DNA of 63,436 nucleotides, counting the filler, from Candidatus Desantisbacteria bacterium CG1_02_49_89 (GTDB taxonomy: Bacteria; Desantisbacteria; UBA1551): assembly GCA_001871075.1 (NCBI GenBank). It is 5 parts of 5 records of this genome, joined end to end, with 100 filler letters (N's around TTAATTAATTAA, not from the genome) between each part and the next. Parts side by side here need not be neighbours in the genome. Positions count along the whole stretch, not along the records: positions 1 to 7,702 come from MNUP01000121.1; 4 more parts are not named here. The stretch is one strand, 5' to 3'. The first letter of the stretch is position 1. Each line of letters begins with the position of its first letter. Positions 35 through 54,942 of the stretch are shown here, one piece after another. Under the pieces are notes generated by a model. It saw only the letters and a list, made by a program, of their open reading frames with translations. It searched no databases and was not told where the DNA came from. Both the position numbers and the translations under genes were made by a program.

Positions 35-2413
35 TCAAATGGAAGAGTGATGAATTCCAAAGAAGCCGCGCTTATGGTCTCGGTCTGGGCAGCCGGAAGC
101 AGTCCCGCATCCGGGTTTTCCGCGCTGATAACAATACGTGCGCTCCCAGACCCAGATAGTTGTGGCGCCCTGCCCGTGGATCGCTCCCTGCCAGAGCACG
201 TTCCTGACATGCGCGGACGGTATATACCCGAAATCCCTGTCCATGATAAGGTGGTTCTCGGAATTAAAGACCGGCTTGTCTGCAACAGAACGCTGCAGGT
301 CATAAGCCATATTCTCAACCTGCCAGCCGCTGCAATATTCCCCGTCTCTGGCATACCACTTGCAGCAGTCATTACCGTTGATCTGGCTCAATTCCCCGAA
401 CAGCTCAGGGTCGATCCCCCATCCTGTTGTCCCCCTGTCCGCGACCGGGCACCACATCATTATTTTCGCGTGCACGGGCAGGTCCGGTGCGACCTCATGT
501 ATAATATCAGCCATAAATTTGTGCCAGCCCGCGAACCTTTCCGCGTTAAAGACCGCCCAGTCATAATAAACAGGCTTCTCTTTTACATTTGACCCCTGGG
601 CAGGCACATCATCGAAAGAACTATAGCTGGTGCCGTAATTCTTGTTCAGCGTCCCGATACTGCCGTGTTTTTTCTGGAGCCATTCCCTCCACATATTTTT
701 TGTAAATTCGCACTCCCTTGACTCGGTATAGACCGGCTCGTTGGAAAGGCAGACGCTGTGAAGCGCCGGGTGGTCCTTGACCATGGGTATCACGAAACGT
801 ATAAAGTCTTCCAGCACCCTGCGGCTCTCAGGCGCGTCAATGCAGTATTGCAGGAACCCGCCTGAACAGCTCTTTAAATGAGGGTATTTGTTCTTCACCC
901 ACTCCGGAAAATAATGGGGGCTGAGCAGAAGGTTTATCGCGACGTTGTTCGCCTGCGCCCTGTCAGCGACTTTCAGAAAATCCTTCACAGCCGCGTCCGA
1001 GACCTTTCCCTCTGAAGGGAAAACGCTGTTAGGCCCGAACTCGATCTGGATAATGTTAATGCCGTAACCCGGAAATTTTTCAATATCCGCGCGCACCTGC
1101 CCGAATGCCCCGTACCCGGTAAAGAACACCGGGCGGGTCTCAGCCCTGCCTGAAAGGGTCTTTGTGGCTGCAATAAAACAGGGGCCTTCGATCTTTATGG
1201 AGCTGGTTGGCACATACCTTGGCACTTCCAAGACCTTGCGGCCGCCTGCGGCTATTCCGTCCAGGTCCTTTTTTGTTTCTTTAAGCATTGTATCTATTTC
1301 ATCAACCGCGTCCTGTGCCCTCTTGATCTCTCTTTTCGTTAGATCCTGGCTTACATACTTAAGAAAGTTCTCCGCCACTGTCACCGCGACTTTCTGGTAA
1401 GAACAGTCAATCCCTTTGTTCTCCAGATCCTGCGCCAGCACCTTCAAGGCATTATTGTTCTCCTCTAAGCCTGAGATCCTGGCCAGGAGCTTATCTTTCG
1501 CCTGCTCAGCGCTGTAAACAGTGAAAAAAACCTCTTCTTTTTTCTTTCCGGGTGCCCCTGCTGAAAACCTGTAAGCCCCAGCGGAAATATTTTTCGTATT
1601 TAATTGAAGCGTGGTTATGTTCTCACCCTTTTTTATTTCGATCTCCTGTGCCGGGAATTCCGCGTATTTTTTCCCTTCTTTGTCCAGAATACCGAATTCC
1701 AGCTCCGCCTCACCAAGGTCTTTAGCGCTGAGCAGACAGAACTCCGCCTCCAGGCTCTCTCCTATTAAAAATTCATTCTTATTTATTTTCAAAGAACTTT
1801 TATCAGCCGCAGGCCCGGAAAACGGCCTCGCGCGGTAAGAAATGTCCGCTATATCCCCTTCCCCTGATCTTGCCAGGCGCACTTCGTCTATCCACAAACC
1901 TTTTGTGATGCCGTCCACGTCTATCCTCAAAGGCCAGGCAGTTTCTTTACCGGTCCTGAATTCCAGCTCAAACCTTGTCCAGTCAAAGCTGCCTGAAGGA
2001 AACCCTTTTCTGACCGCCCATCCGGGACCTCCGCCGAACCAGGCATTTTCCTGGCTTTCAGCTTTCGCCCGGATAGAAAGGATGTACCCGGTATTAGGCT
2101 CCACAGGTATATCCTGCTGCAGGCCTCCGTATACATGCGGACCAAAATCCGAGGCGCTGGCAAGCCTTACTGCCCTTTTGCCGGAATAATAAACTCCATT
2201 ATCCATGCCGCAGGTTGCTTTGGCATTCCTGGAAATTCCCCAGTTCCAGGAAGCGGGCAGCTCTTCCCCTTCCTCAAAATCGGGATTCCGCACTAAATTT
2301 TCCGCGCGGATAAATTTCAATGGCAACCCTGGCTCCTTTTCTGATCCTGTCCCTTCGGCGCAAACAAGGCTCAGGCATAACACCATAAACCACAAAAAGA
2401 CATTTTTAACCAC
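35..2413 (-). CDS. Secreted GH42-like beta-galactosidase with N-terminal CBM4/9-like domain; C-terminus appears truncated or frameshifted
   Basis: Signal peptide, NLVRNPDFEE CBM-type start, LSNEP acid/base and FNSENH nucleophile-type motifs of a clan GH-A barrel. Start reassigned to GTG at 2413 (AGGGAG upstream). Confidence 0.65.
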   Translation of the reverse strand: MVKNVFLWFMVLCLSLVCAEGTGSEKEPGLPLKFIRAENLVRNPDFEEGEELPASWNWGISRNAKATCGMDNGVYYSGKRAVRLASASDFGPHVYGGLQQDIPVEPNTGYILSIRAKAESQENAWFGGGPGWAVRKGFPSGSFDWTRFELEFRTGKETAWPLRIDVDGITKGLWIDEVRLARSGEGDIADISYRARPFSGPAADKSSLKINKNEFLIGESLEAEFCLLSAKDLGEAELEFGILDKEGKKYAEFPAQEIEIKKGENITTLQLNTKNISAGAYRFSAGAPGKKKEEVFFTVYSAEQAKDKLLARISGLEENNNALKVLAQDLENKGIDCSYQKVAVTVAENFLKYVSQDLTKREIKRAQDAVDEIDTMLKETKKDLDGIAAGGRKVLEVPRYVPTSSIKIEGPCFIAATKTLSGRAETRPVFFTGYGAFGQVRADIEKFPGYGINIIQIEFGPNSVFPSEGKVSDAAVKDFLKVADRAQANNVAINLLLSPHYFPEWVKNKYPHLKSCSGGFLQYCIDAPESRRVLEDFIRFVIPMVKDHPALHSVCLSNEPVYTESRECEFTKNMWREWLQKKHGSIGTLNKNYGTSYSSFDDVPAQGSNVKEKPVYYDWAVFNAERFAGWHKFMADIIHEVAPDLPVHAKIMMWCPVADRGTTGWGIDPELFGELSQINGNDCCKWYARDGEYCSGWQVENMAYDLQRSVADKPVFNSENHLIMDRDFGYIPSAHVRNVLWQGAIHGQGATTIWVWERTYCYQRGKPGCGTASGCPDRDHKRGFFGIHHSSI

Positions 2414-2420
2414 GAATTTC

Positions 2421-2487
2421 TCCCTGCAGCTGCTGCGCAACTTAACGCAGGGACCTTCGGGTCAGAACTGAACCGATGACCCTGCGG
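2421..2487. mobile_element. 67-nt two-hairpin mini-element, copy 1
   Basis: Interrupts TAACCACGAATTTC^CACGGATTCTCACGAATTT; the uninterrupted site is at 31723-31755; homologous copies at 40632 and 54721. Confidence 0.8.
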
Positions 2488-2530
2488 CACGGATTCTCAC
2501 GAATTTTAAACTTTAGAGTAGAGCCTTAGG

Positions 2531-7702: not shown

Positions 7703-7802
7703 NNNNNNNNNNNNNNNNNNNNNNNNNNNNNNNNNNNNNNNNNNNNTTAATTAATTAANNNNNNNNNNNNNNNNNNNNNNNNNNNNNNNNNNNNNNNNNN
7801 NN
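7703..7802. other. Artificial contig linker
   Basis: N-run with central TTAATTAATTAA (stops in all frames). Confidence 0.98.
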
Positions 7803-14730: not shown

Positions 14731-17700
14731 ATTAAAAAGATATTTTTTCCGCTATTTCTGGGGTTTACTATGGCCTGCATTTTTTCTCCGTTGCATGGCC
14801 TTGCGCAGACTGTATCCGAGACTGATTCCTATTTTACAATCGCTGAGTCGTGCATGCCGGCTGACGGCATATCCACGCGGACTATCTCAGTTTACATCAA
14901 AGCCGCCACCCAATACAGCCCTTTATCCGGCAGACAGGTAACTCTGTACAGCAGCCGCGGTCCTGCAAGCGATACCGTTGTAATGATAAATGCCATTACA
15001 AATGCCAATGGCCAATGCACCGGCCGGATCAGTTCAGCCTTTCCAGGCGAAGTCAATATTTACGGGATATGCGATACCGCGACTATAACCGAGAACTTAG
15101 TTACAAACTGTTCTTTTGAAACAGGCGGTATCACAAGTGTTACCGGCTGGACCCTGGGAACAAACCACGGGCGAAACGTCGCCGCTTTCAAGTCCGGAAA
15201 TTATTCCCTGAGGTCTATATTTGCAGGCGCAGGAGGCACATCCAGTTATCCGACCAATCTTTTTGCTCTTGAACCCCACTCATACTACAGGCTGAAAGGC
15301 TGGATACGGGACGCGCAGACCGCAGGCAATGCCTATTTTGATGTCAATGATCTAAGTTATGACCTCATGTTGGGCGTGGTGAAGGATAACACCTGGCGTT
15401 ATACTGAAGGGGACTGGAACAGTTATGCAAATTTCTCAGGGAGAGTCAGGTGCGTGACTGACGGCACTCCTGCCGGAACCGTATATTTTGATGCAATGCG
15501 TTTTTACAGGATTCCAACACTGACATTCCTGCCTGTTAAAGAAATCCCGATAGCGATTCAGGCAGAATCTACTGATATCAGGCATCTGGGCGGAGGATAT
15601 GCAAGCAATCCGTCCAGAACCGGAGGCGTAAGCTCAGTTATTTGGGGCACCTTCTGGTGTTTTTATGGCGACAGTGAAAGGCTTATTGTATACTGCAGGG
15701 TTCCTCAGGTCTGGACCGGATTTGAGACTCAGTGGTTCAAAGTTTCAGTAAATGCTGTCGCTATGTATAACACGGCAAATATGGCTGTTTCAATAGACGA
15801 TGCAAATACACAGTACTTCGCAGTTAACACAGCTACTGTGACGGTTTACACAACCAATACTTTCAGCCTGTCAGTCGGTTTTCATAAACTTGNNNNNNTG
15901 TAATTATGCTCCCAAACGGTGGTTCCACAGACCTTTATCTTGACTGGATAGGAATAGGACCGGTAAAAAATGCAATAGACCCGCCTGCGTTTTCAAGGGA
16001 AGAAATAAGTATTTTCCAGGACAATAAATATGTCTCGCCAATCTGGGAATTCAATACCGCAGGAAACACAGAAGGATGGGAAGGCTATAACGGCGCGAGC
16101 ATAACAGGTGTTTCGGGAGGAAGTCTCAACCTTACTACAACAAATACCCCGGCGATGATGCTTTCTCCCTGGATAAATGTAACTGCTTCAGAAAATTATT
16201 ATGTGAGTTTCAGGATGAAGGTGGATAAAGGCACAACCGGAAAACTGCAGTGGGTGAGAAAAAACACTCCGGGACCCCTGGGCGAGAGAAGCTTTGCATT
16301 AGAACTTGATAACGAGTATCACGTGTACAATATTGATTTACATCCCGGTACTGGTTACAGCATGTGGGGAAATACATGGGATGACATTATCAAGGGCATT
16401 GTTCTATTGCCAAGCGATGCATTAGGCGCTAATATTCAGATTGACTGGATAAGAATATCAAATTTACCTCAGAATGGAGCAGAGGTAAAGATTACTTATT
16501 TTGGCGTTAAAAGAGAGGGGCGTATTGGAGAAAGTATTCCGATTACGCTGGACCTTAAGAATTTTGGAGGAGAGCCTGCAGAATTCGTGCGCGCAGACCT
16601 TTATCTGCCTGCGGGAGTCCAGGTTGCAAACGGAGGAAATACGTTCGGACTGACAGCTCTTTATGACAGCACTACGTTTTCCTGCACTGTTGTCAGTTAT
16701 ACTGTAATGTCCAGCGCCGCGTTTGTAACAGTCAGCGGAAAGAACTTCGCGGCTGAAACCGCAAGCTGCACCATTACAATTGTTGCAAGACTGGCGTCTG
16801 ATACCGATTATCCGCCGGTTCCCAACACAGTGACAACGCCATATGATGTGGGAATGTATTATTTCCCTGGATGGAAGGAATCAGCAAAGGACGTTAGTAT
16901 GGGTAGTCTTGGGTGGGATAGGATAAGACCTGAGTTTTCTGAAAGAAAGCCTTACCTGGGTTGGTATGACGAGGGTGAAACGACCATTGCAGACTGGCAT
17001 ATAAAATGGATGGTTGACCATGGCGTAAAATTTATAGCTTATGATTGGTATCATCAATATGATATGCATTTTCTTGAACACGCCATTAATGCGTATCTTG
17101 GTTCAAAATACCGTTCTTATATCAATTTTTGTGTTACCTGGTGCGACCATTTTGAAGGACATACGCGTGACCTTATGCTTGAAGTCACCCAGTACTGGAT
17201 TGACCACTATTTTAATCAGCCAGAATATTACAAGATTAGCAATAAGCCGGTTGTGATAATTTTCAGCCCTTTGCAGATGAAGGACGACCTGGGCAGCACA
17301 ACTGCCGTTTTAAACGTATTTACAGAAATGCGGCAGATGTGTGTTAATGCAGGCTATGCAGGTTTATATATAATTGGCCTTGGTTTGGGCGGTTCATATG
17401 TTGCCCAGACATTCAAAGATTGTGGTTACGATGCAGCAACCGGATATAACTATTCCCAGGCAGGCATGAGTGATAATGAAAAAGCACAAAGGAGCAGCCC
17501 ATATTATAAGGCTGTACCAGCGTTTAAATATGCCTGGGAAGAAATGCAGTTAACCGGAATTTTGCCTTTTATAGCGTTTACTGAACCGGGATGGGATGAC
17601 CGTCCGTGGGCAGGTGCAAATGCCCTTGTGAGGACAAACAGGAACAAGGCAGATTTCAAATCTATGCTTCTCAATGCAAGGACTTTTGCCGATAGTTATC

Positions 17701-18830: not shown

Positions 18831-18930
18831 NNNNNNNNNNNNNNNNNNNNNNNNNNNNNNNNNNNNNNNNNNNNTTAATTAATTAANNNNNNNNNNNNNN
18901 NNNNNNNNNNNNNNNNNNNNNNNNNNNNNN
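18831..18930. other. Artificial contig linker
   Basis: N-run with TTAATTAATTAA. Confidence 0.98.
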
Positions 18931-19821: not shown

Positions 19822-20516
19822 CTTGGCCCGCCCGTAAGACGGGCGAAACCTTCGCGGCTACATTAGGTGCGTTCGGGGAACGGACCCTGCAAATACACGC
19901 AACCTCCCTCCTTAAAGATTGGCGGGTCTTCGAAAAGGTTGCGGCTACCTCAGGGGCAAGCAAGCTTGCCCCTACGCGAAAAGCAACCATATTCGGGCGT
20001 GATCCTCCAAACTGACTGGCGGACAGGGGAATTGAACCCCTACAAAGCTTATAGGATACCACTTTTGCCCAAAAGTGGTGTCCTTTATAATACCACTTTA
20101 GGTGACACTTTTATTAACTGTATGACCGCTCAAAGACCGCTATAAGAATCCCTCTGTGTCTCCCTTTATAAAAGGGAGAGCGGGCGTGATGAATCACGCC
20201 CCTACAAACGCAAACCTCCCTCCTTAAATTGGCCTGGAAGGGGAAATAATGGGGACGGGTTCATTTATTTCAACGCAACCTCCCTCCTTAAAGATTGGCG
20301 GGTCTTCGAAAAGGTTGCGGCTACCTCAGGGGCAAGCAAGCTTGCCCCTACGCGACACATAAATAGCAGAGCCCTCCATAAAAATTGGCGGATTTTCAAC
20401 AAGCTCTGCCGCTACAGAAATACGCAAGCCTAAAGGCTTGCCCTACGAAAAATAGGATATAATGTGCGACGAAACGTCGCACCGCTACAAAACGCAGGCT
20501 GAAGCCTGCGGCTATC
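19822..20516 (-). repeat. Array of about 12 co-oriented heterogeneous GTAG-hairpin (REP-like) units, including an exact 83-nt direct repeat
   Basis: Units end in CTAC/CTGC/CTAT on the plus strand; 19897-19979 is identical to 20273-20355. Confidence 0.85.
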
Positions 20517-23509: not shown

Positions 23510-23770
23510 GATTACGGTGATTTCAAAATTAACCACAGAGGCACGGAGGCACAGAGAAATACATTTTTGCCACTGTCCGCCCGTCTTTACAGCGGGCGAG
23601 ACCTCGCCCCGATGGCCATCGGGGCGGGAAGGTACTGAGATAGATTGCTTCGTTTTTACTCGCAATGACCTTTCAGTGAATTCAGTGAACTCAGTGGCTA
23701 ATTTCAGATTTTACTATGACTCTTTGACTCGGCGCCTGCCCGCCCTTGTCCGCCAATTTTTAAGGAGGAA
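23510..23770. repeat. Composite intergenic repeat cluster
   Basis: GATTACGGT, CACRGAGG and TCAGTGAA arrays; double-hairpin insert 23576-23628; GATTGCTTC..CGCAATGAC half-element; TCCGCCAATTTTTAAGGAGGA module. Confidence 0.75.
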
Positions 23771-25202: not shown

Positions 25203-25330
25203 AGTTTACAGAGTTTACACAGGTTACAGAGGTTACAGAGTAAAAGCCGGATACAATAGTTTACAGAGTTTACAGAGTTTTAAAACTTATGACTTTGTAA
25301 ACTTTATAAACTATGTAAACTATGTAAACT
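25203..25330. repeat. 9-mer AGTTTACAR tandem arrays in inverted arrangement
   Basis: AGTTTACAG repeats facing TGTAAACT repeats; the same unit occurs at about 40573, 44008 and 54598. Confidence 0.85.
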
Positions 25331-26686: not shown

Positions 26687-26785
26687 GTGTCAACGTGTCA
26701 ACGTGTCAACGTGTCAAAGTTAAAGCTTTAAATCGAAATCCTTGCAGTTGCTCTGACACGCTGATACGCTAATACTCTGACACGC
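26687..26785. repeat. 8-mer GTGTCAAC arrays in inverted arrangement
   Basis: Four GTGTCAA units at 26687-26717; TGACACG-type units at 26754-26785. Confidence 0.85.
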
Positions 26786-29592: not shown

Positions 29593-29647
29593 CCCGCCCC
29601 GATGTTGCGATGGGGCGAGGTCTCGCCCAGATTGAAATCTGGGCGGA
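29593..29647. repeat. Double-hairpin CGCCC module
   Basis: GGGCGAGGTCTCGCCC core between two hairpins, located between convergent genes. Confidence 0.75.
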
Positions 29648-29686
29648 AAAGTTAAATCAACTATCAATTGTGCCAAAATGAAACAC

Positions 29687-30925: not shown

Positions 30926-31711
30926 CTATCCCTGACTGCTTTTTATGCTGTCAATCCACTTTTTAGTCCACTCAACAGCATCAAGCCTTAGATCGCAGAT
31001 GCAGCTCGCAAGAAAAATAATTCCTTCTATCTCCCCTGTTTTAAGAAGATCCAGGCCGAACCTGCATTGTTTTTCCATCAGCTCGACCTGCATCGGTTTG
31101 CTGTTCCCGAAATCATACATGTAGCAACCCAGTACCTTACGGCTCCCCGGGCACATTTTTTTCAGTTTCGCAAAATTCATTTCAAGACGCGCGAGATCTT
31201 CCGAATGCCAGGTCCACAGCGTTGTCACGTCGCACTCGTCAAGATACGGTTTTACCGCCAAATCCAGCTCGTGGGTGTAAAGAGTTACCCATAAATCCAA
31301 TTTGTGCCCTGCGTCTGTCCTGTTGGACAGGCTTCTGCGTATATTCGCAATGTCCTGAGGTTTATACGCATTCATCCGGAAGGAGAAAAAATCATCCATT
31401 ATTACGCCGCGTATGTTGGGGAATTTTTTTGATAGCTCAAGTAAGACAGGCACTTCGCTCTCGTTTGAACTTGCTGAATCGCCGATTATTGACCAGACCA
31501 CTCTGTTTAACTTTTTAAAAGACGCGGCATACTTGCTGTATTCGGGAACTTCCGGCTTGTTGTTAAGCCTGACAAAGAGGATGTTGGAGACGCCCATGTA
31601 AGAAGCCGCTTCCGCAGGCGATATTTTTGATCCTTCCTTAAACCCGTACTGGTTATTCACTCCGCCCGCAACATGCGTCCACAACCATAATTTATCCAAT
31701 ATGTTCAACAT
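30926..31711 (-). CDS. Conserved hypothetical protein, likely TIM barrel
   Basis: Clean ORF with GAGGTGG SD before ATG 31711; GVIMDDFF motif. Confidence 0.7.
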   Translation of the reverse strand: MLNILDKLWLWTHVAGGVNNQYGFKEGSKISPAEAASYMGVSNILFVRLNNKPEVPEYSKYAASFKKLNRVVWSIIGDSASSNESEVPVLLELSKKFPNIRGVIMDDFFSFRMNAYKPQDIANIRRSLSNRTDAGHKLDLWVTLYTHELDLAVKPYLDECDVTTLWTWHSEDLARLEMNFAKLKKMCPGSRKVLGCYMYDFGNSKPMQVELMEKQCRFGLDLLKTGEIEGIIFLASCICDLRLDAVEWTKKWIDSIKSSQG

Positions 31712-31842
31712 AACCACCTCTGTAACCACGAATTTCCACGGATTCTCACGAATTTTTCACAGGGAACCCTTCACCAAGATCGGCGGGCAAGCTTACGAGA
31801 ACTTAAAATTTTTGGTTTAAACAAATGACAAATGACTATTGA

Positions 31843-33531
31843 CTAATGACTGCTTATAAAGGGCTTTAAACGCAGGTTCAGCGCCTTTGATTTCCCGTCG
31901 GAAATTGATAAGACAGACCCTGTTCCGCAGCTGTTCCAGTCCGCGATTAGTTTCCCGCCTTTTTTCGCACCGGAAATTTTAACCGCGGCTTTTCCTCCGT
32001 CGGCTTCAAGGTTCACAAGAACGATCTTTCCGAAGTTATAAACGCCGGGCTTCAGGCTGCCCAGCGTTATTATCTTCCTGCTCCGGACGATACCGAGCTT
32101 CAGGACCTTCGGGGCGCAGGTAAAGCGCAGGGTTGCGGCAATGTTCTTCTTAAGCGGTTTTGCGGAAACTAGTATTTCCTTATCCTTGAAAATCCATTCG
32201 GCTTCGACATTTTTATCCTTCCAGATAAAGACGCGCTCATTCTTTTTAAACAGTTTACCGGGGGAAACGGTTTTGGTGCCGGGCACGGCAAAGATCGAAA
32301 AATGCATGGGTTTGTTTTCATCAATATCAACAACGGGATTATCATCCTTTCTGTCCAACCTGAACCTGCTGCTGTCAAGCAAATAGGGGATTATCCACCT
32401 GGCGAATTTCTCCTCTGCTTTCTTGCTCCAGTACGGGTCTTTCTTTTTAATGTCGTAAACGCGAAGGTCTGTAAGCCTCGGATATGCTGCGCTGCCTTTA
32501 TCATGGCGCAGGCGTGCCCTGTAATAAGGAGTGCATGCAACTACGCAACTGCTATTCTTTAAAGAGCTTCTCCAGCCCCCGGGCTGGTACAGGATCTGAG
32601 CAGGGGAGGGGGCGGAAAAATTTCGAAGATAATTTTTTGAAAACTCGCTTGCTGTCACGCTTTCCGCCCTTCCTTCTTTATGCAGTTTTGCCAGGCAGGC
32701 GATCTGCTCTTCGTACGCCGCGGCAAGCATTTTCCAGTCCCACCCGTTCTCCGCTACAAAAGAAGCAAGCCCGACTGGTTTTTCGCCAAGCGCGTGGTCT
32801 GTCAGTTTGTTTATGTAGTCTATTATCACGCTGCCCTTCAGGCTGCGCTGCTGTATCATTGCCACTTCTGTGGACCATATCCCTTTTTCATTACCGTAGT
32901 TTGAAGTAAGGTCTTCGGTAATCACCGGGTAAATAACTTCTTTGCCCTGCCCCTGCTTTGACTGCGCGGGCTGCCAGATATATCTGCGTGAAGGCCGGAA
33001 GGGAAGGTTTGGCCACCCGCCCCACAGCGTGTATCCGTCAATGCCGAACTGGTTCCTGCAAAGCCCTATCGCGCGCACCTTGTATTTTTCCGCCAGGTAC
33101 TGAGCGGAAAAACTGTCGATCATCCACATAGACACGGTTTTCGGGTAAAACCTGAAGAGGGAGCGGTAACGCTTCATTATTACGTCGATCAGCAGCTTTC
33201 TTTCCTTTTGGCTATAACCCATTGTCAGGCAATATTTTGCCCAGAACCATTCTTCTCCCTGCCTGATCTTAAAAGGAATGCCTGCCTCCCTGCAATGGGA
33301 AGAGGTGATCTCCAGCCATACCCCGAGTTCCTGGTCTTTATCCAATCCTTTGCACAGCTCGATATATTCCGGGTCGCAAAGCGCGTCGTACCTGGGCAGC
33401 CAGGTCCCCGCGATGCCGTGTTTTTCAAGCAGGCGCTTCATTCCCCAGGCCATCTCCCTGTTGTTCCACGCCGGAGGCGTATCATCGCCGCGCAGGGGCA
33501 AGTTGTAGATAATATACTTATCTGTTTTCAT
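31843..33531 (-). CDS. Hypothetical protein with a glycoside hydrolase/deacetylase-type N-terminal barrel
   Basis: TWL..YDAL, ELGVWLEI, YPKTV..W.ID, DGYTLWGG motifs. Confidence 0.55.
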   Translation of the reverse strand: MKTDKYIIYNLPLRGDDTPPAWNNREMAWGMKRLLEKHGIAGTWLPRYDALCDPEYIELCKGLDKDQELGVWLEITSSHCREAGIPFKIRQGEEWFWAKYCLTMGYSQKERKLLIDVIMKRYRSLFRFYPKTVSMWMIDSFSAQYLAEKYKVRAIGLCRNQFGIDGYTLWGGWPNLPFRPSRRYIWQPAQSKQGQGKEVIYPVITEDLTSNYGNEKGIWSTEVAMIQQRSLKGSVIIDYINKLTDHALGEKPVGLASFVAENGWDWKMLAAAYEEQIACLAKLHKEGRAESVTASEFSKNYLRNFSAPSPAQILYQPGGWRSSLKNSSCVVACTPYYRARLRHDKGSAAYPRLTDLRVYDIKKKDPYWSKKAEEKFARWIIPYLLDSSRFRLDRKDDNPVVDIDENKPMHFSIFAVPGTKTVSPGKLFKKNERVFIWKDKNVEAEWIFKDKEILVSAKPLKKNIAATLRFTCAPKVLKLGIVRSRKIITLGSLKPGVYNFGKIVLVNLEADGGKAAVKISGAKKGGKLIADWNSCGTGSVLSISDGKSKALNLRLKPFISSH

Positions 33532-33544
33532 ATGTCTTCAGCTC

Positions 33545-33717
33545 AATTATGAATTATGAGTTATGAATTATGAATCAAAAGCATGGATTTTTATTGTAAC
33601 TCAGGGCTTTAGCCCTGATATCAAACCTGAAGGTTTGAGTTACACATCGTTCTCAGTGCCTTCAGTGGCTAAAGCTTGTTTCGTGCTTTCGTGATACTTT
33701 CGTGCTTTCGTGGAAAT
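33545..33717. repeat. 7-mer TTATGAR array, GTAA REP doublet and TTTCGTG 9-mer array
   Basis: The same 7-mer/linker/REP module occurs at 48424-48497. Confidence 0.8.
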
Positions 33718-33730
33718 TGTTGTTTTGGTA

Positions 33731-34798
33731 TTATGGTGTACCGAAGTCCTTTATTGCCCTGACTATCTCGGGAATGCTTGTCCTCCAGCAATCCGCAGGC
33801 ACGTTCTCGGATATCTGTATCTGCAGGCTGCCGGAATGGCCCGCTTCTTCAAGTATCTTCATAGCGTGGGCGTAAACCTCAGCGGGTTTTGAAAGGTGGA
33901 CAGAGGAAGGGAAATTGAGAAGGAGTTTCATACGGGGCCACATTTGCAGGGCTTCCGCGGCTGTTGTGTCGCCTACAGGCACGGGTGTAAACGAATCTAT
34001 GCCGCCTATCCCGGACCCGGCGATCCCGTCTTTCAGCGGTTTAAGGTTTCCGTCCAGGTGCGCGACTACAAGTGTCTTGCTTTCTGAAAGCATGCTTGCC
34101 AGCTCCCTGTAAAGAGGAACGCAATATTTGTCGAAGAACCGCGGGCCTATCGCAGGCGCCGTGATGTTGTCTATTATATCCACGAAGGGCAGGGGAACTT
34201 TTTCTGCCGCGGCCCTGACGATCCCAAATACCTGCCGCAGCTGGCCGGCAAGCATATCAACGCACTCCTGCACTACGTCAGGGAAATCGCTGAGGTGCAT
34301 GCAGAGGCTCTCAAGCCCTGTCCATTCGATCCACAGCTGCTGGTAAGGGGTGCGCCCTACCGAAACAAGAGGAAGCCCGTCGCTGCCAGCCCATTTGTCA
34401 TCCTCGAGGAACTGCGCGGTATTTTCCAGGACAACGCAGTCCTTAAGGTATTCCATGAAAATTATGTAGTCTTCCCTGGTCCGGACAAAGTGCCTTGTGA
34501 TATGCGAGCTTCCGTATGCCGGTTCGATGAGCCTTTCCTGGACAAGCGAACCCTTGGGTGTATGGATGGTAGTGACAACGCCTTTCCTTCCGTCTTTTTC
34601 AATGTCTTTTGTCTCAAACCTGCAAAGAGGGAACTCAAAGCGGTGCAGCGAGGTCCATTTCAGAATGCCCATGTTTTCCCTGCCGACCAGGTCCCAGATG
34701 TCCCGCGTCCGCGCCGCGCAGTTGTCATACTGGACAAAAGGCACGCGGTCATGCTTACGCCCCCGAAGAACGGCAAGCATCCTCTTCCGCATAGTCAT
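33731..34798 (-). CDS. URO-D family protein
   Basis: RKRMLAVLRG..HDRVP, F..YCVP.Y, HLDG, IDSFTP motifs. Confidence 0.75.
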   Translation of the reverse strand: MTMRKRMLAVLRGRKHDRVPFVQYDNCAARTRDIWDLVGRENMGILKWTSLHRFEFPLCRFETKDIEKDGRKGVVTTIHTPKGSLVQERLIEPAYGSSHITRHFVRTREDYIIFMEYLKDCVVLENTAQFLEDDKWAGSDGLPLVSVGRTPYQQLWIEWTGLESLCMHLSDFPDVVQECVDMLAGQLRQVFGIVRAAAEKVPLPFVDIIDNITAPAIGPRFFDKYCVPLYRELASMLSESKTLVVAHLDGNLKPLKDGIAGSGIGGIDSFTPVPVGDTTAAEALQMWPRMKLLLNFPSSVHLSKPAEVYAHAMKILEEAGHSGSLQIQISENVPADCWRTSIPEIVRAIKDFGTP

Positions 34799-34807
34799 AA
34801 AAACTCC

Positions 34808-35016
34808 GGTTACTCGTTACTGGTTGCTGGTTACTTGGTAAATACTGTTAAAAGTTAAAGGTTGAAGGTTAAAGGTTGGAAGCCAAACTGTGTTTACCTG
34901 TGTTTATCTGTGGTTAAAAAGCCAAGGGTTGTCTTTCTCCGTGCCTCCCCACCCTGCGCAAAGGCAGGGCGAGGTCTCGCCCCGATATCGATCAGGGCGG
35001 ATGTGTCTCCGTGGTG
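34808..35016. repeat. Tandem 7/9-mer arrays with a double-hairpin insert at 34948-35001
   Basis: GGTTACT, GGTTRAA and CTGTGTTTA arrays; the insert splits CTCCGTGCCTC^TGTGTCTCCGTGG. Confidence 0.75.
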
Positions 35017-35039
35017 ATCTTTTCATGTTTTAGTGGTAA

Positions 35040-36284
35040 TCAGTAAATTGCGAAACTGCGGATCACCGGGGTACCGGCGCTTTTCAGGACGCGCAGGCGC
35101 GCGCGGCTTGCCATAACAGGCTCTATACGGTCTATCTTCTTATGCCCGACAGCGCTCCCTGTCACGATCGTTTTCCACTCGTCGTTAGCCAGAACTTCGA
35201 TCCTGTAAGCCCTAACTCTTTCGCCATGCCTGATGTCCTCCATGGCCACAAAATGCTTAATAACCGTGTCCTTTTCGAGGTCGAGCTCGAAAACACTGCC
35301 CTTGCCTTTTGTTTCCGCCAGCAGGGAACTGAAACGGTTCTTTATCTCGATGCCGAATTCCGCGGCGCGCTCTACGTCAGCAGAGGGTATCAGCCCTGTC
35401 CTGTCGGGGGTGTGGTTAAGAAGAAGGTTGCAGCCGTGGCCTACTGACCGGTAGTAAATGTCCATTAGCTTGTCAAGGCTTTTCAAAGTGCCTTCGTTCG
35501 TCGTGAACCAGAACCAGTCCCTGCGGATCGCCACGTCGCATTCCGCGGGCATCCATTTTGTTCCCTTGCCGCCCGCGGCCGCGTTCCTTTCGGGAGACCA
35601 GTCCTTATCGTTATTCGAAACCGTGTTCCGCGCCGGGTAGGGAGCGACGCCGTCCTCGTTGCCGACCCAGCGGATCGTCGCCCTGTTGCTTCCGAATACC
35701 ATTGCCTCAGGCTGGTATTTCTTGATAACAGGCCCTGCGAGGTCGCCGTCAGCTCCGCCGTCAAACCAAATTTCAACAAGCTTTCCGTATCCCGTGCACA
35801 ACTCTTCAAGCTGCTGCCTGTAAATTTTATTATAGAGTTCCTGGTGGCAGGATCTTCCTGAACGCGCTATCCCGCTTGTTGTTATCCCGAAGTGGTCGTC
35901 CCTTGGAGACAGATAAAAACCCAGGGGCATTTTTCTTTTCCTGCATTCTTTCGCGAGGTCCCCGCAAATATCGCCTTTTCCTTTGCGCCAGGGAATGCTC
36001 TTCACGCTGTAATCCGTTGTTTTCGTGGGCCACATGCAGAAGCCGCCGCAGTGCTTGGCGGTAAAAACGATGTATTTCGCGTTCATGGATTCGGCTACAT
36101 CCACCCACTGCGCGGCGTCCAGTTCCTTTGGGTTTATTTCGGAAAGGGGAGTATAAAGCATGTCATAGTGCTGGTCCTGCCAGGTATTGGGCGCGAAATG
36201 TATGAACATCCCGATCTCAAGGTCCTGCCATGCTGCCTGCGCCGGGCTTGGCAGAGCAAGCCTGTGTTTTTTACTGCCTGTCAT
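35040..36284 (-). CDS. GH29 alpha-L-fucosidase
   Basis: GMFIHF, TAKHCGGFCMWP, EIWFDG, RWVGNEDG, SVG...NLLLN; C-terminal CBM32-like sandwich. Confidence 0.92.
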   Translation of the reverse strand: MTGSKKHRLALPSPAQAAWQDLEIGMFIHFAPNTWQDQHYDMLYTPLSEINPKELDAAQWVDVAESMNAKYIVFTAKHCGGFCMWPTKTTDYSVKSIPWRKGKGDICGDLAKECRKRKMPLGFYLSPRDDHFGITTSGIARSGRSCHQELYNKIYRQQLEELCTGYGKLVEIWFDGGADGDLAGPVIKKYQPEAMVFGSNRATIRWVGNEDGVAPYPARNTVSNNDKDWSPERNAAAGGKGTKWMPAECDVAIRRDWFWFTTNEGTLKSLDKLMDIYYRSVGHGCNLLLNHTPDRTGLIPSADVERAAEFGIEIKNRFSSLLAETKGKGSVFELDLEKDTVIKHFVAMEDIRHGERVRAYRIEVLANDEWKTIVTGSAVGHKKIDRIEPVMASRARLRVLKSAGTPVIRSFAIY

Positions 36285-36393
36285 ATTGTCTCCTTTTTTC
36301 AACTGATGATTGCGGTGATTATAAAAGATAGTTGTCGGTTGTCAGTTGTGAGTTGTCAGTTCATAACCATAACTGAAATTTCGTGCTTTCGTG

Positions 36394-36466
36394 ACGTAGC
36401 CCGCCACGATTATTGGCGGGCGAAGATCCCTGCGTTACAGCTCCAGCTTCATCGGAGCTGCAGGGG
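36394..36466. mobile_element. 73-nt variant of the 67-nt mini-element
   Basis: Scaffold CGTAG..CGAAGATCCCTGCGTTA..CTGCAGGGG with different hairpins, inside a 9-mer array. Confidence 0.65.
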
Positions 36467-37360
36467 CTAATCCGCGGTTAAAATTTGCTCTTTGCCGGAG
36501 GTGATCGAGACGTCGATCGCATTGAGGATCGCCTGGACTTCAAGGCTGTCCTCCGGCCTGGCAGGCGGTTCCCCGCCGCTGAAGAATTTTATGATCTCTT
36601 TAAGAAGGTCCGTGTATATGAAAGACGTGTCCACGGCAAGGAACTTCATTCCCTTTTCGTCATGGCAGTATATGCCGTAGTGGTAAACGCCCTCATTCAG
36701 CTGTATTATCCCGCGCCTTCCGCCCTTGTATTCAACGCAGGCAATTGCCCCGCATCCGTCCTTGCGCGCAAATACTTTCTCCGCCCCTGTTCCCATAACC
36801 CTTTCCAGCATTTCAACCGCGTGCACGCCGTACCAGACAACGGAACTCCCGGCAGGGGCCTGGCCCAGAGGACCGACGGCCATACAGATCTTCGGGCGGG
36901 AAAATTCGCGCGATATCTCAAGCACCTGCGGGGCGAAGCGCAGGGAGGAAGCCGAGAATACCCTGACCTTTGAGCCTGCCGCGATCGAAAAGATCTCCTT
37001 CGCGTTTTCCATGGTGTCCGCGGGCGGCTTGTCAAGGAAAACCGGCTTTCCGAGCCCTGCCGCCTTTTTGAAATACTCAAGGTGCGGCGAAGGATCGTTG
37101 ATCTCAAGCATGAGAGTGTCCACGCCGTCTGCCGCCTCTTTAAAATCCCGCGTAACCTTCACGCCCCACTGTTCCATCTGCTGCTGGCGTTTATCCTGGT
37201 CAGGCTCTGTCTGGAAAGGGGAGGGGAACCTGAGGCATTTGACAGCTTTCATGCCCTTTACTTTCTGGTCTGCCGGGCAGTCCGGGGCCTGCAGCCTGCG
37301 CGTGAATTCTATGCTGTGGCTTGTGTCCAGACCGATGATGCCAACCATTATGTCCTTCAT
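36467..37360 (-). CDS. Gfo/Idh/MocA oxidoreductase
   Basis: GIIGLDTSH, FLDKP, SASSLRF, WYGVH. Confidence 0.88.
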   Translation of the reverse strand: MKDIMVGIIGLDTSHSIEFTRRLQAPDCPADQKVKGMKAVKCLRFPSPFQTEPDQDKRQQQMEQWGVKVTRDFKEAADGVDTLMLEINDPSPHLEYFKKAAGLGKPVFLDKPPADTMENAKEIFSIAAGSKVRVFSASSLRFAPQVLEISREFSRPKICMAVGPLGQAPAGSSVVWYGVHAVEMLERVMGTGAEKVFARKDGCGAIACVEYKGGRRGIIQLNEGVYHYGIYCHDEKGMKFLAVDTSFIYTDLLKEIIKFFSGGEPPARPEDSLEVQAILNAIDVSITSGKEQILTAD

Positions 37361-37375
37361 CCAGCCTCCTTTAAT

Positions 37376-37545
37376 GCGTGTCAGCGTATCAACGTGTCAA
37401 CGTGTCAACGCAAAAGCAAGGAATTTATTTTAAACTTTAGCAACAAAACATATTCTTTCGTGCTTTCGTGTTTTCCTCGCCCATCCTTTCAGGTGGGCGA
37501 AGTCTCGCCCGCTGAAAGACGGGCGGAGTGTTTTCGTGGAAATTA
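37376..37545. repeat. 8-mer array, GCAAGGAATTT linker and 52-nt double-hairpin insert (37476-37527)
   Basis: The insert is identical to 54822-54873. Confidence 0.85.
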
Positions 37546-37548
37546 GTA

Positions 37549-39354
37549 TTAATCTGGCTTGAAGCATGATTTTCTTTCAGGCGGGATTTCTCCATGAAAC
37601 GGCAGCCAGGAGCGGTAATGCGTGCCGAACGCTCCGGCACTCGCGAAATCGCACAGCGCAAGCTCCCTGCCATCCGCTGCCTTGAATTTCAGCAGGACCC
37701 ACGGCTTCGCCCAATTTTTAAATGTTAAATCTTTAAATCTTGCAATCTTATAATCGAGTTTTTCAGGATCAATCGCCGGCACGTTATCCGGGTCCATTGA
37801 ATTAAACCTCTGGTCATATGCCAAAAGTAACGGCCCGCGGTAAACCGAGATTTTTCCCGCCTTTTCCTTTTCTCCCTCCCAGAAATGCAAAGAGAGATCG
37901 AACAGAACATTAACTACATTAACACCATTACAAACATTTTCTATTAAAACATAAGAACCAGGGACAATGTTTTTTATCGGTTTGCCGTTGGCCGTTATTT
38001 TGGTATTCTTTGACCAGGCCGGAACGCGCAGGAATATCGGCACGCCGGTTTTCCCTGAGGCAGAAACCCTTATCTTCACCTTTCCTGAAACCGGGTAATC
38101 TGTTTCCTGTTCTATTTTTATCTTTGTATTTTTGCCGGCAACTGCCTCGATCCTGCACGGACCAAAGTAGTTTATCGCTATCCCGCCGTCTTTTTCCATG
38201 AACGCCCATTCGGAAAGCATTCCTAAGCCCCGCGGCCCGTTAACCGAGCAGCAGTTCAGCTCAGGAGCTCCCTGGTATGCCTGGAAAACTATCTCGTGCG
38301 CGGAAGCCTTGCGCACGCCGTCCATCGGCGTGTTATACGTGCACCACCTGCCTGAAGGGTGCTGCGCTCCAAGCAGGGCGTTGAATAAGGAAAGCTCGAT
38401 CTCATCCGCGACAGCCGGGTCGCCTGTGATCCGCAGGATATCTATTGAAAGCGCGGCCCACGCCACAACGCAGCAGGTCTCAATCGCCCTCTCGTCATAT
38501 GGATTGCCTACTGCCTGCTCTGCCGAAGAAAACGCGCCTGTGTTATGCCTGTCAAACCGCCTTATGCTCTGCCATATATGCGTTACCGCCTTCCTGTATT
38601 TTTCGTCCCCGGTTATAAGATACAGCTCAGCGATCGCCTGTATGCCGTGTATGCTCTCCCACCTGGGCTTGGGGGTCTGGAAGAATTCTTTGCCTTCAAG
38701 GGCTGTCCGCACGTAATCGCCGGCTGGCGGGGTCTCCCAGTCCTTCTCGATCTCCCTCGCCATCCGCAGGTAGCGCTCGTTCCCGGTAATCTTATAAAGG
38801 ATACAGAACCCGTGGATGCTTGAAAGGTTCATCTCGTCCGAACCGGCGCTTATCGCGCGCACCCCTGTGCCGAGGAACTTGTCACACATAACATCAGCCG
38901 CTTTGCAGGCGGCGTTCAAAACCTTCCGATCTTTTGTCTCCTGCCACCACATAACAAGGCCCAGGATAATGTGATAATGGCTCCAGAGGTCCCACAGCGG
39001 ATTTTTGCCGTCGAATATCATGCCTGTAAGGCGCTCTGCTTTGGGGTGCGCGCCAAGGTACCCGTCAGCGTCCTGCAGCGATACCAGTTTTGCCGTGAAA
39101 TCCTTTATGAACTTGAACAGCCGCTTGTCCCTGGTAAGCCTGTATCCCTGCACCGCGGATATAAGGTATTTCCCGGCGAATTCCCCAGACCACGGCTGCA
39201 GCTCGCGCCTGGGTTTCCTGTCCCTGTCAGCGAACATGTACAGCATCGCGGGATTGGAAAGCGGAGCCTGCAGCAGCCAGTTCTCCTGGTTTTTCGCTAT
39301 CCGCTCTCCGACGTATCCGCCGAATTTATATTTTGCCTTTGCCAGCCGCTCCAC
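37549..39354 (-). CDS. GH127 beta-L-arabinofuranosidase-like protein
   Basis: GKY, ETCC, NCCSVNG.RG Zn-Cys motifs, TDYP, RGPL. Confidence 0.88.
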   Translation of the reverse strand: MERLAKAKYKFGGYVGERIAKNQENWLLQAPLSNPAMLYMFADRDRKPRRELQPWSGEFAGKYLISAVQGYRLTRDKRLFKFIKDFTAKLVSLQDADGYLGAHPKAERLTGMIFDGKNPLWDLWSHYHIILGLVMWWQETKDRKVLNAACKAADVMCDKFLGTGVRAISAGSDEMNLSSIHGFCILYKITGNERYLRMAREIEKDWETPPAGDYVRTALEGKEFFQTPKPRWESIHGIQAIAELYLITGDEKYRKAVTHIWQSIRRFDRHNTGAFSSAEQAVGNPYDERAIETCCVVAWAALSIDILRITGDPAVADEIELSLFNALLGAQHPSGRWCTYNTPMDGVRKASAHEIVFQAYQGAPELNCCSVNGPRGLGMLSEWAFMEKDGGIAINYFGPCRIEAVAGKNTKIKIEQETDYPVSGKVKIRVSASGKTGVPIFLRVPAWSKNTKITANGKPIKNIVPGSYVLIENVCNGVNVVNVLFDLSLHFWEGEKEKAGKISVYRGPLLLAYDQRFNSMDPDNVPAIDPEKLDYKIARFKDLTFKNWAKPWVLLKFKAADGRELALCDFASAGAFGTHYRSWLPFHGEIPPERKSCFKPD

Positions 39355-39368
39355 TTTAGTCTCCTTGT

Positions 39369-39511
39369 TAGAGTCACAGAGTCAAAGAGTCACAGAGTCA
39401 AAGTAGATACTGTGTTTATCCGTGGAAATCATTTACTTTTGCATTTTACACTTTGCATTTTGCATTTTGACTTGTATTTCCCCTTACACGTTACACGTTA
39501 CACCTTACACG
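39369..39511. repeat. Adjacent tandem arrays (AGAGTCAM, TTTGCAT, TTACACG)
   Basis: About four units of each motif read directly from the sequence. Confidence 0.85.
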
Positions 39512-39515
39512 AGTT

Positions 39516-40547: not shown

Positions 40548-40631
40548 ATTGCCTCCAAGGTAATCCATGGTAGTTTACAAAGTTTATATAGTTTACACAG
40601 TTTACAAAGTATAAATCTGTGCTAATCCGTG

Positions 40632-40698
40632 CCGTAGGGTCATTTACTCGATTCTGACCCGAAGGTCCCTGCGTTAAGCTGCGCAGCTGCTGCGGGGG
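40632..40698. mobile_element. 67-nt mini-element, copy 2
   Basis: Follows AATCCGTG; aligns without gaps to the reverse complement of 2421-2487. Confidence 0.8.
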
Positions 40699-40744
40699 GT
40701 GATTCTTTCGTGATTTCGTGGCACTTTCGTGCTTTCGTGGAAAT

Positions 40745-41473
40745 TTATGGTTGCATGTTGTCTTGCAGTTTAATAAGCAGGTCAGGGCGGTTTGTCAGGA
40801 TGGCGTCGGTCTTGATCTCTATCAGCCTTTTCATTTCCTCTTCTGTGTCCGCGAAGAACACGTTCACGTATATCCCGTATGAATGCGCCCTATCAACCAG
40901 CTCCTTCGTCACTTTATAGGAAGGGGAGAAAAACTGCAGGATGGGGCATTTAAGCTTTCGGGTTTCCTCTACGTATTCTTCGGGATCTGACTGGTATCTC
41001 ATGTTGCATATACGGATCCTCCTGTGCAGTTTGCGGGCGAGCTGGTGCTGGTTTGCGTCAACAGCAAGGTAGGAATTATCTATCCTCCCGGTATTTTTAA
41101 GCAGTTTTATGGTTTTTCCAACGGTCTCAGGAACGGGCCACATGTGCAGGTTAAGCTCTATGTCCGAAGGAATGGAATCCAGGGCTTCTTCCAGGGTGGG
41201 TATCTTTATTCTTTTAAGCGCGGGATCAAGCCAGGAACCCGCGTCCAGGCCTTCGGCTTCAATAAGGGTCAGGTCAATGATCTTCCCTTTTCCGTTCGTT
41301 GTCCTGTCAACGGTTTCATCGTGCAGGATAACAAGGCTTCCGTCTTTCGTGCTTTTCACGTCCATCTCTATGCTGTCCGACCCGATTTTAACCGCTTCGC
41401 GGAAAGCAAGCACCGTGTTCTCAGGGAACTTCCCGGAAAACCCCCTGTGCGCGATTACTTTTACTTTTTTCAT
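40745..41473 (-). CDS. Glycerophosphodiester phosphodiesterase family protein
   Basis: IAHRG, PENT, EMDV..TKDG...ILHD..VDRTT, TNRP. Confidence 0.92.
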   Translation of the reverse strand: MKKVKVIAHRGFSGKFPENTVLAFREAVKIGSDSIEMDVKSTKDGSLVILHDETVDRTTNGKGKIIDLTLIEAEGLDAGSWLDPALKRIKIPTLEEALDSIPSDIELNLHMWPVPETVGKTIKLLKNTGRIDNSYLAVDANQHQLARKLHRRIRICNMRYQSDPEEYVEETRKLKCPILQFFSPSYKVTKELVDRAHSYGIYVNVFFADTEEEMKRLIEIKTDAILTNRPDLLIKLQDNMQP

Positions 41474-41741: not shown

Positions 41742-41791
41742 TTGACTTTTCCCGCGATTTGAGTATAATAATAGTATAATCAAAGTTATAC
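41742..41791 (+). promoter_or_regulatory. TA operon promoter with palindromic operator
   Basis: TTGACT-16-TATAAT; GTATAA-N6-TTATAC at 41774-41791. Confidence 0.65.
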
Positions 41792-45970: not shown

Positions 45971-46333
45971 GCGTGTCAGCGTGTCAACGTATCAGCGTGT
46001 CAGAGCAACAGCAAGGAATTTATTTTAAAACCTTATTAACAATATATCTTCGTGTTTTCGTGGAGATCATGTTTTTTTTAAGTTCTCTTAAGTTCCCTGT
46101 GAAAAAATTTTAAGGTGGTCTCCCGCCTCATCGGCGGGTCGCCGCAGGGGCGAACATTGTCCATAGCATACAAAGAGACGCGCTCATTAGTTCAATTGTT
46201 TCCCTGCAGGCCCTTATGGCCTAACGCAGGGATTTCACTCCCAGTTCAACAATTGCTCAATAGCTGAAGGAATTTAAATTTAAAATTCCTTGTTTTTGCG
46301 TTGATACGTTGACACGTTGATACGTTGACACGC
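45971..46333. repeat. Inverted pair of 8-mer/GCAAGGAATTT modules enclosing further hairpins
   Basis: 45971-46030 and reverse complement 46281-46333; internal TCCCTGC..GCAGGGA hairpin at 46201-46232. Confidence 0.75.
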
Positions 46334-54720: not shown

Positions 54721-54787
54721 CCGTAGGGTCATCGATTCGGTTCTGACCCGAAGGTCCCTGCATAGAGCTGCGTAGCAGCTGCAGGGG
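54721..54787. mobile_element. 67-nt mini-element, copy 3
   Basis: Sits in ATCTGTG^GATATCCGTGG. Confidence 0.8.
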
Positions 54788-54873: not shown

Positions 54874-54942
54874 GTGATTTCGTTGAGCGGGAAGCGAAAC
54901 CCCCGCGTTAGCCCGATAACGGGCTGTGGGGGTGGAAATCTT

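Follow-up and report, generated by a model that had tools for sequence, protein, structure and literature searches.

The stretch of DNA analysed here (63,436 nucleotides; hereafter the window) originates from Candidatus Desantisbacteria bacterium CG1_02_49_89 and consists of contigs joined by linkers of the form N44 + TTAATTAATTAA + N44 (7703-7802, 18831-18930, 48858-48957 and 56179-56278), with N6 at 15893-15898. Since the window is a pseudomolecule of joined contigs, distances and neighbourhoods across the linkers are meaningless. Its genes include many glycoside hydrolases with Laminin_G_3 domains and one for a prepilin-type N-methyl protein, a content that is reminiscent of PVC bacteria. 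A PemK/MazF-like toxin ORF lies at 42005-42358 on the plus strand (Pfam, E 8.9e-18). Nearly every intergenic region carries short tandem arrays with units of 7-10 nt in 2-5 copies (78 Tandem Repeats Finder rows). Between two 10-mer units of one such array, of the CGTG type, and in sense orientation to the flanking minus-strand genes, lies the focal feature of this study, a 67-nt element termed copy A, which reads CCGCAGGGTCA...GCAGGGA on the minus strand. Two further complete copies, B and C, are present in the window, copy B in antisense orientation to its flanking minus-strand genes. The features belonging to this family are compiled in Table 1.

Table 1 Copies of the 67-nt element, related units, landing sites and a further hairpin pair. 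Positions refer to the window unless a metagenome locus (L number) is given
Feature	Position	Strand	Score or basis
Copy A, 67-nt element (focal feature)	2421..2487	-	covariance model 86.8 bits, E 4.4e-15
Copy A, left target units in element orientation: two 10-mers, the second ending ...ATCCGTG	2488..2507	-	
Copy A, right flank unit in element orientation: GAAATTCGTGGTTA	2404..2420	-	
Unoccupied paralogous 10-mer array, equal to the copy A flanks minus the element	31723..31756	-	string identity
Copy B, 67 nt, directly 3' of CTAATCCGTG	40632..40698	+	covariance model 87.6 bits
Copy B, left target units, period 10	40614..40631	+	Tandem Repeats Finder
Copy C, 67 nt, directly 3' of ATTATCTGTG	54721..54787	+	covariance model 92.1 bits
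Copy C, tag CCGTA	54721-54725	+	
Copy C, hairpin 1 arms	54726-54731 and 54744-54749	+	
Copy C, hairpin 1 loop	54732-54743	+	
Copy C, GAAGG	54750-54754	+	
Copy C, hairpin 2 outer arms	54755-54762 and 54780-54787	+	
Copy C, bulge	54763-54766	+	
Copy C, apical hairpin	54767-54779	+	
Variant copy, 73 nt, directly 3' of CTTTCGTG	36394..36466	+	covariance model 23.7 bits, E 0.006
Solitary hairpin-2-like module, GAAA + TCCCTGCG ... TGCAGGGA, without hairpin 1	46201..46249	-	17.6 bits, E 0.085
Weak hairpin-2-like module with changed outer stem ACCCCCGC / GTGGGGGT	54883..54932	+	10.3 bits, E 2.2, not significant alone
Empty paralogue for copy A	31748	-	
Empty paralogue for copy C	L014:940		
Empty paralogue for L022	23676		
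CCGCCCCGATG..CATCGGGGCG hairpin pair	2639-2672, 23594-23630, 29600-29650, 34967-35001, 43834-43870		

A preliminary description of this DNA had held that removal of copy A regenerates a string found intact elsewhere in the window. Indeed, when 2381-2420 was joined to 2488-2530, linking ...GAATTTC to CACGG..., the longest string shared with the region around 31723 measured 34 nt, one base more than claimed, and was identical to 31723-31756. Shifting the cut by one base in either direction abolished the match, demonstrating that the boundaries 2421 and 2487 are exact and bearing out the notion of a discrete unit placed at one defined base within a short tandem array. The 3' end of copy A is fixed by the empty paralogue as ...GCAGGGA. 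Beyond the 34 nt, the sequences flanking the two regions are unrelated, indicating that 31723-31756 represents an unoccupied paralogous array and not, as had been proposed, an empty allele of the copy A locus. The host array itself needed correction as well: instead of 9-mers it comprises three 10-mers ending or starting with CACG, i.e., a period of 10, which Tandem Repeats Finder also assigned to the CGTG arrays at 40614, 53896 and 54639. Other host arrays are made up of 8- to 10-mers.

An 18-mer core common to the copies occurs three times in the window, compared with a mean of 0.02 in 100 shuffles, none of which reached three. A scan of metagenome contigs for this core returned 49 loci: 33 with the whole element (one of them, at a contig end, with its 5' part alone), two with a 5'-truncated copy inside mosaic clusters, and 14 unrelated chance matches. 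Several of these loci were 100% identical to the window, and window and metagenome loci together collapsed into 17 distinct sites, 16 of them complete. These 17 sites were drawn from 63 kb and a metagenome scan with one 18-mer core; all canonical copies were fished with the exact core, which includes the 3' arm of hairpin 1, so that the conservation of both the core and this arm arises partly by construction. Matches to the core in reference genomes (one in each of 13 unrelated taxa, none accompanied by the remainder of the element) and in viral contigs (one match inside GC-rich coding-like DNA) were dismissed as chance, and a distant-mode search of a plasmid collection gave no match. The window region was present in 24 DNA runs, all of them groundwater or aquifer metagenomes, with no RNA run listed. 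Contigs of four runs that were placed on 31000-48800 broke at the intergenic repeats, where the summed contig depth rose up to 533 versus about 10 in genes. None of the 15 contig joints listed (of 15 + 105 in the four runs) displayed a clean 67-nt skip. One run contig followed the left flank of copy B as far as 40631 and then entered another array unit; its continuation resembles the paralogous array at 54649-54690 and is thus uninformative on an empty allele at copy B.

The collected sites provided a view of the boundaries, for which unrelated flanks or variable ends had been named beforehand as the signs of a mistaken reading. All 17 distinct sites keep the 5' boundary, with an end reading CC(G/A)NAGGGTCA, and all 16 complete sites keep a 3' end of the form ...(C/T)(T/A)RC(A/G)(A/G)G(G/A)R, hence ...GGR throughout. 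A left flank recurs across the 16 complete sites as well, with A at position -7 in 11 sites, T at -6 in 16, C at -5 and at -4 in 13 each, G at -3 in 15, and T at -2 and G at -1 in all 16. Next to the CCGTAG end, the motif on the 5' side is CGTG in 13, GTG in 15 and TG in 16 of 16 sites. Every one of the 17 sites lies 3' of a T-Y-N-G-T-G-type motif and in one orientation relative to it; copies B and C, as originally reported, are 67 nt each and directly follow ATCYGTG (ATCCGTG and ATCTGTG, respectively). The left unit varies with the type of the local array (ATCCGTG, TTTCGTG, CTCAGTG, CTCCGTG, TTCCGTG), and therefore belongs to the host sequence and not to the element. On the right, the flank mostly begins a new array unit (G at +1 in 14, A at +2 in 12 and A at +4 in 13 of 16 sites). 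Array units are found on both sides at 14 of the 16 sites, while L034 and L058 have unrelated sequence on the right. Flanking direct repeats do not exceed 3 nt in 14 of 16 sites; since the two longer ones are due to identical array units on either side, there is no consistent target duplication. Terminal inverted repeats are absent, in that the 5' end CCGTAGGGTC and the reverse-complemented 3' end share their first two bases alone.

For three of the 16 complete sites, empty counterparts were found (at most 2 mismatches in 24 nt). All three are paralogues, and no empty site was seen at the level of alleles. The most informative case is that of copy C and L014, which share the same composite array, with about 50 nt alike: in L014 the copy C junction is empty, but an element is found 17 nt beyond it, behind the following ...CGTG. 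At L056, a second, divergent unit is located exactly one 10-mer downstream of the first, again after ATTCGTG, and at L020 and L024 a unit is nested in another copy, directly after TCCCTGCG. The window contains 14 ATCCGTG heptamers, two of which are occupied. L018 and L025 have 26 further identical bases of upstream array in common, indicating that pieces larger than the element are also copied between loci. Adjoining the first array unit on the right-hand side of copy C is GCTGACCGAAGGT (54800-54813), which looks like a remnant of another copy consisting of the 3' half of hairpin 1 and the GAAGG tag.

RNA and DNA folding agreed in predicting one architecture for canonical and variant copies alike, namely CC-GNA-(hairpin 1)-GNA-GG-(hairpin 2 with bulge and apical hairpin). 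Module 1 is composed of CC-G(T)A, a stem of 6 bp (8 bp in variants), a loop of 7-14 nt and G(A)A-GG, with the facing GNA triplets arranged as G.A / N-N / A.G and closed by CC/GG. The GTAG tag corresponds to the 5' triplet plus the first base of the stem and occurs in 13 of 16 canonical copies, with GCAG, GAAG and ATAG found once each; because its last G already forms part of the stem, the tag is partly paired. In module 2, an outer helix of 8 bp (TCCCTGCR / TGCAGGGR) is followed by a bulge of 4-5 nt on the 5' side and topped by an apical hairpin that is exchangeable. The GTAG-tagged hairpin at one end and the CCCTGC/GCAGGG hairpin at the other, both part of the preliminary description, are hence present. 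When the opposite strand is read, GCAG or GTAG precedes the apical hairpin in most copies, so that the unit can be read as a REP followed by an inverted REP with the tags pointing outward. REPINs in the sense of Bertels and Rainey (2011) reportedly combine one REP with an inverted copy of itself into a single long hairpin. The present unit differs in that its stem-loops are unlike each other and fold separately, without a single long REPIN-type hairpin; the outward tags alone are in common. The statement that stems are conserved while loops vary holds for hairpin 1, whose stem GGGTCA/TGACCC is invariant in 16 distinct copies around a variable loop of 12-14 nt, with the reservation that in this core-fished set the invariance is partly built in. 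The apical hairpin exists in at least five unrelated self-complementary versions that are swapped wholesale between copies. No compensatory change was found in the two outer helices within the canonical subfamily (0 of 15 pairs, 16 copies).

The covariance model that had been suggested as a check was built from the canonical copies and revealed further units, two in the window (36394-36466 and 46201-46249) and five variants in L020, L024 and L056. The 73-nt window variant has the frame CGTA ... GAAG ... TCCCTGCG ... GCAGGGG, with GCCCGCCA/TGGCGGGC as hairpin 1 and an apical hairpin differing from the canonical one; the solitary module recurs in L020:629-677. In all variants the frame is retained, as are G and A in each of the two GNA triplets. 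Hairpin 1 is represented by GGGTCA/TGACCC, GCCCGCCA/TGGCGGGC, GAACCA/TGGTTC and GAGCCA/TGGCTC, and the outer helix of variant module 2 by CCCCAGCG/CGCAGGGG, TCCCTGTA/TACAGGGA, TCCCCCC/GGGGGGG and CTCCTGT/ACAGGAG. The central pair of the triplets changes in concert (T-A, A-T, G-C), with A.A or C.A in some copies. In an alignment of 22 units (16 canonical and 6 variant), 97.8% of the cells pair and seven of 15 pairs are changed on both sides. Two-sided changes amounted to 15 cells, compared with 2.1 +/- 1.3 in shuffles (none of 500 reached the observed value) and at most 2 in slid controls, counts that have to be read with the fitting of this alignment to the covariance model in mind. L020:880-1110 (-) and L024:900-1091 (-) represent mosaic clusters of three or four tagged hairpin units each, including 5'-truncated canonical copies and mutually nested units, an arrangement that calls BIME clusters to mind.

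Every site is located between genes, which in most cases run in the same direction. With respect to Pfam-supported neighbours, eight sites are in sense and nine in antisense orientation (at six loci, Pfam support is available for one neighbour alone), and the GC skew of the flanks splits in the same way. This lack of a gene bias argues for an entity acting at the level of DNA. In a REP/RAYT system (REPtron), a Y1 transposase gene of the PF01797 type is flanked by its own REPs. Neither a Y1 transposase (PF01797) nor any other transposase domain was detected among the 53 ORFs of the window or among 75 ORFs (>=100 aa) in the 2-kb flanks of 16 loci. Elements targeting the template of the lagging strand would be expected to show a strand bias, judging from excerpts of PMC6006769; the 8:9 split over the 17 sites displays no bias of this type. 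Rfam, a comparison likewise called for at the outset, returned no match in the window at gathering score, and at E values up to 10 around copy B yielded one irrelevant microRNA model (E = 4) outside the element. Cores of known self-cleaving ribozymes were looked for by eye and not found, in agreement with Rfam. A literature search with the element's own strings retrieved two unrelated eukaryotic papers and nothing else.

Exact ends, fixed orientation, the absence of a duplication, non-inverted ends and tagged hairpins favour a mobile DNA element over a gene-linked RNA signal, as do the empty paralogues, the nested and tandem insertions and the indifference to gene orientation. We consider it very probable that the unit is, or once was, mobile. 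More specifically, we lean towards the view that it represents a non-autonomous mobile element of the REP/BIME class, with two tagged stem-loops on one strand, moved in trans as single-stranded DNA by a Y1 enzyme. Taken by itself, the proposed assignment of the mobilising enzyme to the Y1 HUH class is one that we regard as evenly balanced. According to this model, a Y1 HUH transposase encoded elsewhere in the genome would excise the folding strand and insert it again in single-stranded form; a RAYT/TnpA-REP or an IS200/IS605 TnpA would be candidates, and the tagged hairpins would be the structures recognised. The enzyme would cleave the left junction 3' of ...TYCGTG and the right end 3' of ...CAGGGR, and the element would be joined 3' of a TYCGTG motif, in a single orientation and without duplication of the target. 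The 8-10-bp intergenic tandem arrays supply this motif in many copies. We infer the class of the enzyme, the single-stranded intermediate and a possible current activity. Weighing against the Y1 reading are the lack of a transposase among the scanned ORFs of the window and the 2-kb flanks, the purely paralogous nature of the empty sites, the lack of a 67-nt skip among the contig joints listed, the missing compensatory changes within the canonical subfamily and the longer stretch common to L018 and L025.

The affinity to GTAG-tagged REPs, BIMEs and REPINs is seen in short stem-loops that lie between genes, bear a GTAG-type tag at the foot and, here, have stems of 6-8 bp, in complementary stem changes between subfamilies, and in paired modules with an outward GYAG tag on each strand. 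Mosaic clusters (L020, L024) and the location of many copies between co-directional genes add to it. As far as excerpts of PMC3733652 go, GTAG-tagged REPs have the PVC superphylum among their hosts, possess stems of 6-13 bp and fall into subfamilies that differ by complementary changes in the stem, and certain REP families are found without exception within particular repeats. Module 1 agrees with the description of GTAG-tagged REPs by Di Nocera et al. (2013) both in the length and stem of the stem-loop (about 20-40 bp, with 6-13 bp in the stem) and in the tag, which is GTAG or a form degenerate at its 2nd or 3rd position and lies at one end; high copy number is a further mark of these REPs. 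Unlike REPs, the element has a second module whose helix is compound, with a bulge in it and a tip that can be exchanged, and its tag belongs to a symmetric loop, G.A / N-N / A.G, which CC/GG closes. It also has exact ends and a heptamer-like motif in arrays, whereas no target rule is mentioned for the REPs of E. coli or Pseudomonas in the excerpts available. The TnpA-REP of E. coli is described in part of PMC3333891 as requiring GTAG plus hairpin and as acting on single-stranded DNA only; it cuts at C|T, in contrast to the element junctions G|C and R|G.

Similarities also extend to the IS200/IS605 family. According to extracts of PMC7290912, its members have no terminal inverted repeats and leave the target unduplicated; they insert on the 3' side of a tetra- or pentanucleotide and require hairpins at both ends. 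PMC2817692 describes their insertion behaviour likewise. Ends-only derivatives (PATEs) exist (PMC7290912, in part), and the element resembles them in having neither terminal inverted repeats nor a target duplication, in lying 3' of a fixed short sequence in one orientation, in carrying a hairpin near each end and, as proposed here, in movement in trans. It differs from a described PATE in size (67 nt versus about 271 nt). A simple copy of IS608 is further opposed by the dissimilarity of hairpins 1 and 2, since the left and right hairpins of IS608 match each other (PMC7290912, in part), by the mere 5 nt that separate the left junction from hairpin 1, by the lack of a strand bias and by the junctions G|C and R|G. 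Inspection by eye of the tetranucleotide 5' of each hairpin foot revealed no guide-like complementarity to CGTG or GGGR; in IS608, the guide/cleavage-site pairs are partly non-canonical. Apart from the 5 nt, these points also weigh against the Y1 reading. Before perfect stems of >=6 bp in the window, GTAG occurred at 1 and CGTA at 4 of 300 hairpin feet, too few cases for a statement on GTAG enrichment. We know of no full-length parent IS with the ends of the element. DDE-type insertion sequences make target duplications. With classical MITEs (Correia/NEMIS, ERIC) the element shares its small size, non-coding nature, intergenic location, multiple copies and ability to fold. MITEs, however, possess inverted repeats at their termini and are considered derivatives of DDE-type IS (PMC3116915, in part), whereas the element has neither inverted repeats nor a duplication.

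The general REP-like class is already known; what sets the 67-nt element apart is its unusually clear landing site. REPs of model organisms offer no clear insertion rule or exact ends, and the spread of REP-type repeats is called poorly understood in an excerpt of PMC8266576. The present family supplies both, together with a fixed orientation, empty paralogues, nested and tandem insertions, and co-varying sister subfamilies with constant G.A-flanked tags. It could therefore serve as a ready set of substrates for tests of Y1 enzymes and as a useful case for REP-like movement. Furthermore, it extends tagged REP-like elements to an uncultured groundwater bacterium and indicates that short tandem arrays can act as preferred landing sites.

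The unit might instead have spread passively, by recombination, gene conversion or replication slippage between array/hairpin mosaics, with the array units serving as homology and without a dedicated transposase. This would account for the array units on both sides at 14 of 16 sites, for the high contig depth summed over the intergenic repeats, for the occupation of the same arrays by other hairpin families and for the lack of a transposase in the scanned ORFs of the window and of the 2-kb flanks. We regard passive copying as unlikely, yet keep it at that level because larger blocks, such as the upstream 26 nt of L018 and L025, are also shared between loci. It is difficult to reconcile with the use of one exact junction base at all 16 sites despite left units from at least four array types, with the lack of a right array unit at L034 and L058, and with the presence of the unit at two different ...GTG| junctions of the same composite array in L014 and copy C. 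Moreover, the nested insertions follow TCCCTGCG, which is not an array, and the orientation to the GTG motif never flips. Another explanation, a structured RNA module (an mRNA-stabilising or processing element or a small RNA) whose copies spread secondarily, appears distinctly unlikely to us. In its favour are the compensating changes in the hairpins, the conserved internal loop G.A / N-N / A.G and the occurrence of G.U-type pairs on the CCGTAG strand alone, where position 37-79 is U.G in 13/16 and further U.G and G.U cases occur. For the three window copies, this strand is also predicted to fold slightly better as RNA (-28.8 vs -26.2, -26.6 vs -19.5 and -31.4 vs -28.9 kcal/mol), and Di Nocera et al. 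argue along the same lines for REPs in general (PMC3733652, in part). Against an RNA function stand the 8 sense : 9 antisense distribution relative to the flanking co-directional genes, the missing U-tract after the hairpins and the missing Rfam match, both in the window at gathering score and on the copy B element at E up to 10. Nor would such a function explain why the target motif is exact or why insertions are nested.

Transposases of another fixed-site, non-duplicating class would likewise produce orientation-specific insertions 3' of a short motif without duplication, and two dissimilar element ends; IS91-type elements behave in this way. Such an enzyme could be a rolling-circle Y2 transposase of the IS91 type or a repeat-targeting site-specific DEDD or serine recombinase. 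We consider this origin very improbable, since no such gene was found in the scanned window or flank ORFs, and the GTAG-tagged hairpin and the neighbouring classical REP doublet (see below) point to a Y1/REP relationship. Returning to the preferred reading of a Y1-moved element, one could go further and assume that the element and the 7-10-nt arrays are two halves of one system run by a single HUH-type enzyme acting on single-stranded DNA. Besides reading the CCGNAGG hairpin tag, the enzyme would nick the arrays at their tag-like ...CCGTG|G junctions; the arrays would be made or extended by rolling-circle-like reiteration and used as harmless landing pads. This extension would fit the resemblance of the CCGTG|G junction to the CCGTAGG tag and the placement of insertions precisely where units meet, yet we rate it as highly unlikely. 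If it were true, the mosaic intergenic regions of a groundwater lineage would have been built by one domesticated recombinase.

The short tandem arrays, which constitute the landing sites of the 67-nt element, fall into many families (AGTTTACAN, GTGTCAAC, CATAACT, CACGGAGG, TTTCGTG, TTACACG and others), with examples at 25203-25330, 26687-26785, 37377-37410, 39370-39511, 45053-45196, 51328-51407 and 51704-51773. They are often arranged as inverted pairs and may form long imperfect hairpins. A second double-hairpin family, CTCGCCCA...TGGGCGAAG followed by TCTCGCCCG...CGGGCGGAG, was found at 37475-37527, 54822-54874, 43853-43899 (inverted) and L034:895-977. It resides inside TTTCGTG arrays with GTGTTTTC-like units on both sides, and at L034 the 67-nt element is inserted directly after a copy of this family. 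A further hairpin pair, CCGCCCCGATG..CATCGGGGCG, occurs in intergenic regions beside GAGAC(C/T)TCGCCC in both orientations. Classical-looking REP doublets are present at roughly 2529-2578, about 40 nt from copy A, and at roughly 43765-43812. They consist of GGAGTAG plus a GACCC..GGGTC hairpin, a spacer, and a GGGGC..GCCCC hairpin plus CTACTCC, with the GTAG tags pointing outward and pairing with each other. Finally, an exact 83-nt direct repeat occupies 19897-19979 and 20273-20355, 376 nt apart. It contains the motif GGCGGGTCTTCGAAAAGG, related forms of which occur near 2617-2640, 7550 (-) and 31775-31800, often beside a CCTCC/GGAGG stretch.
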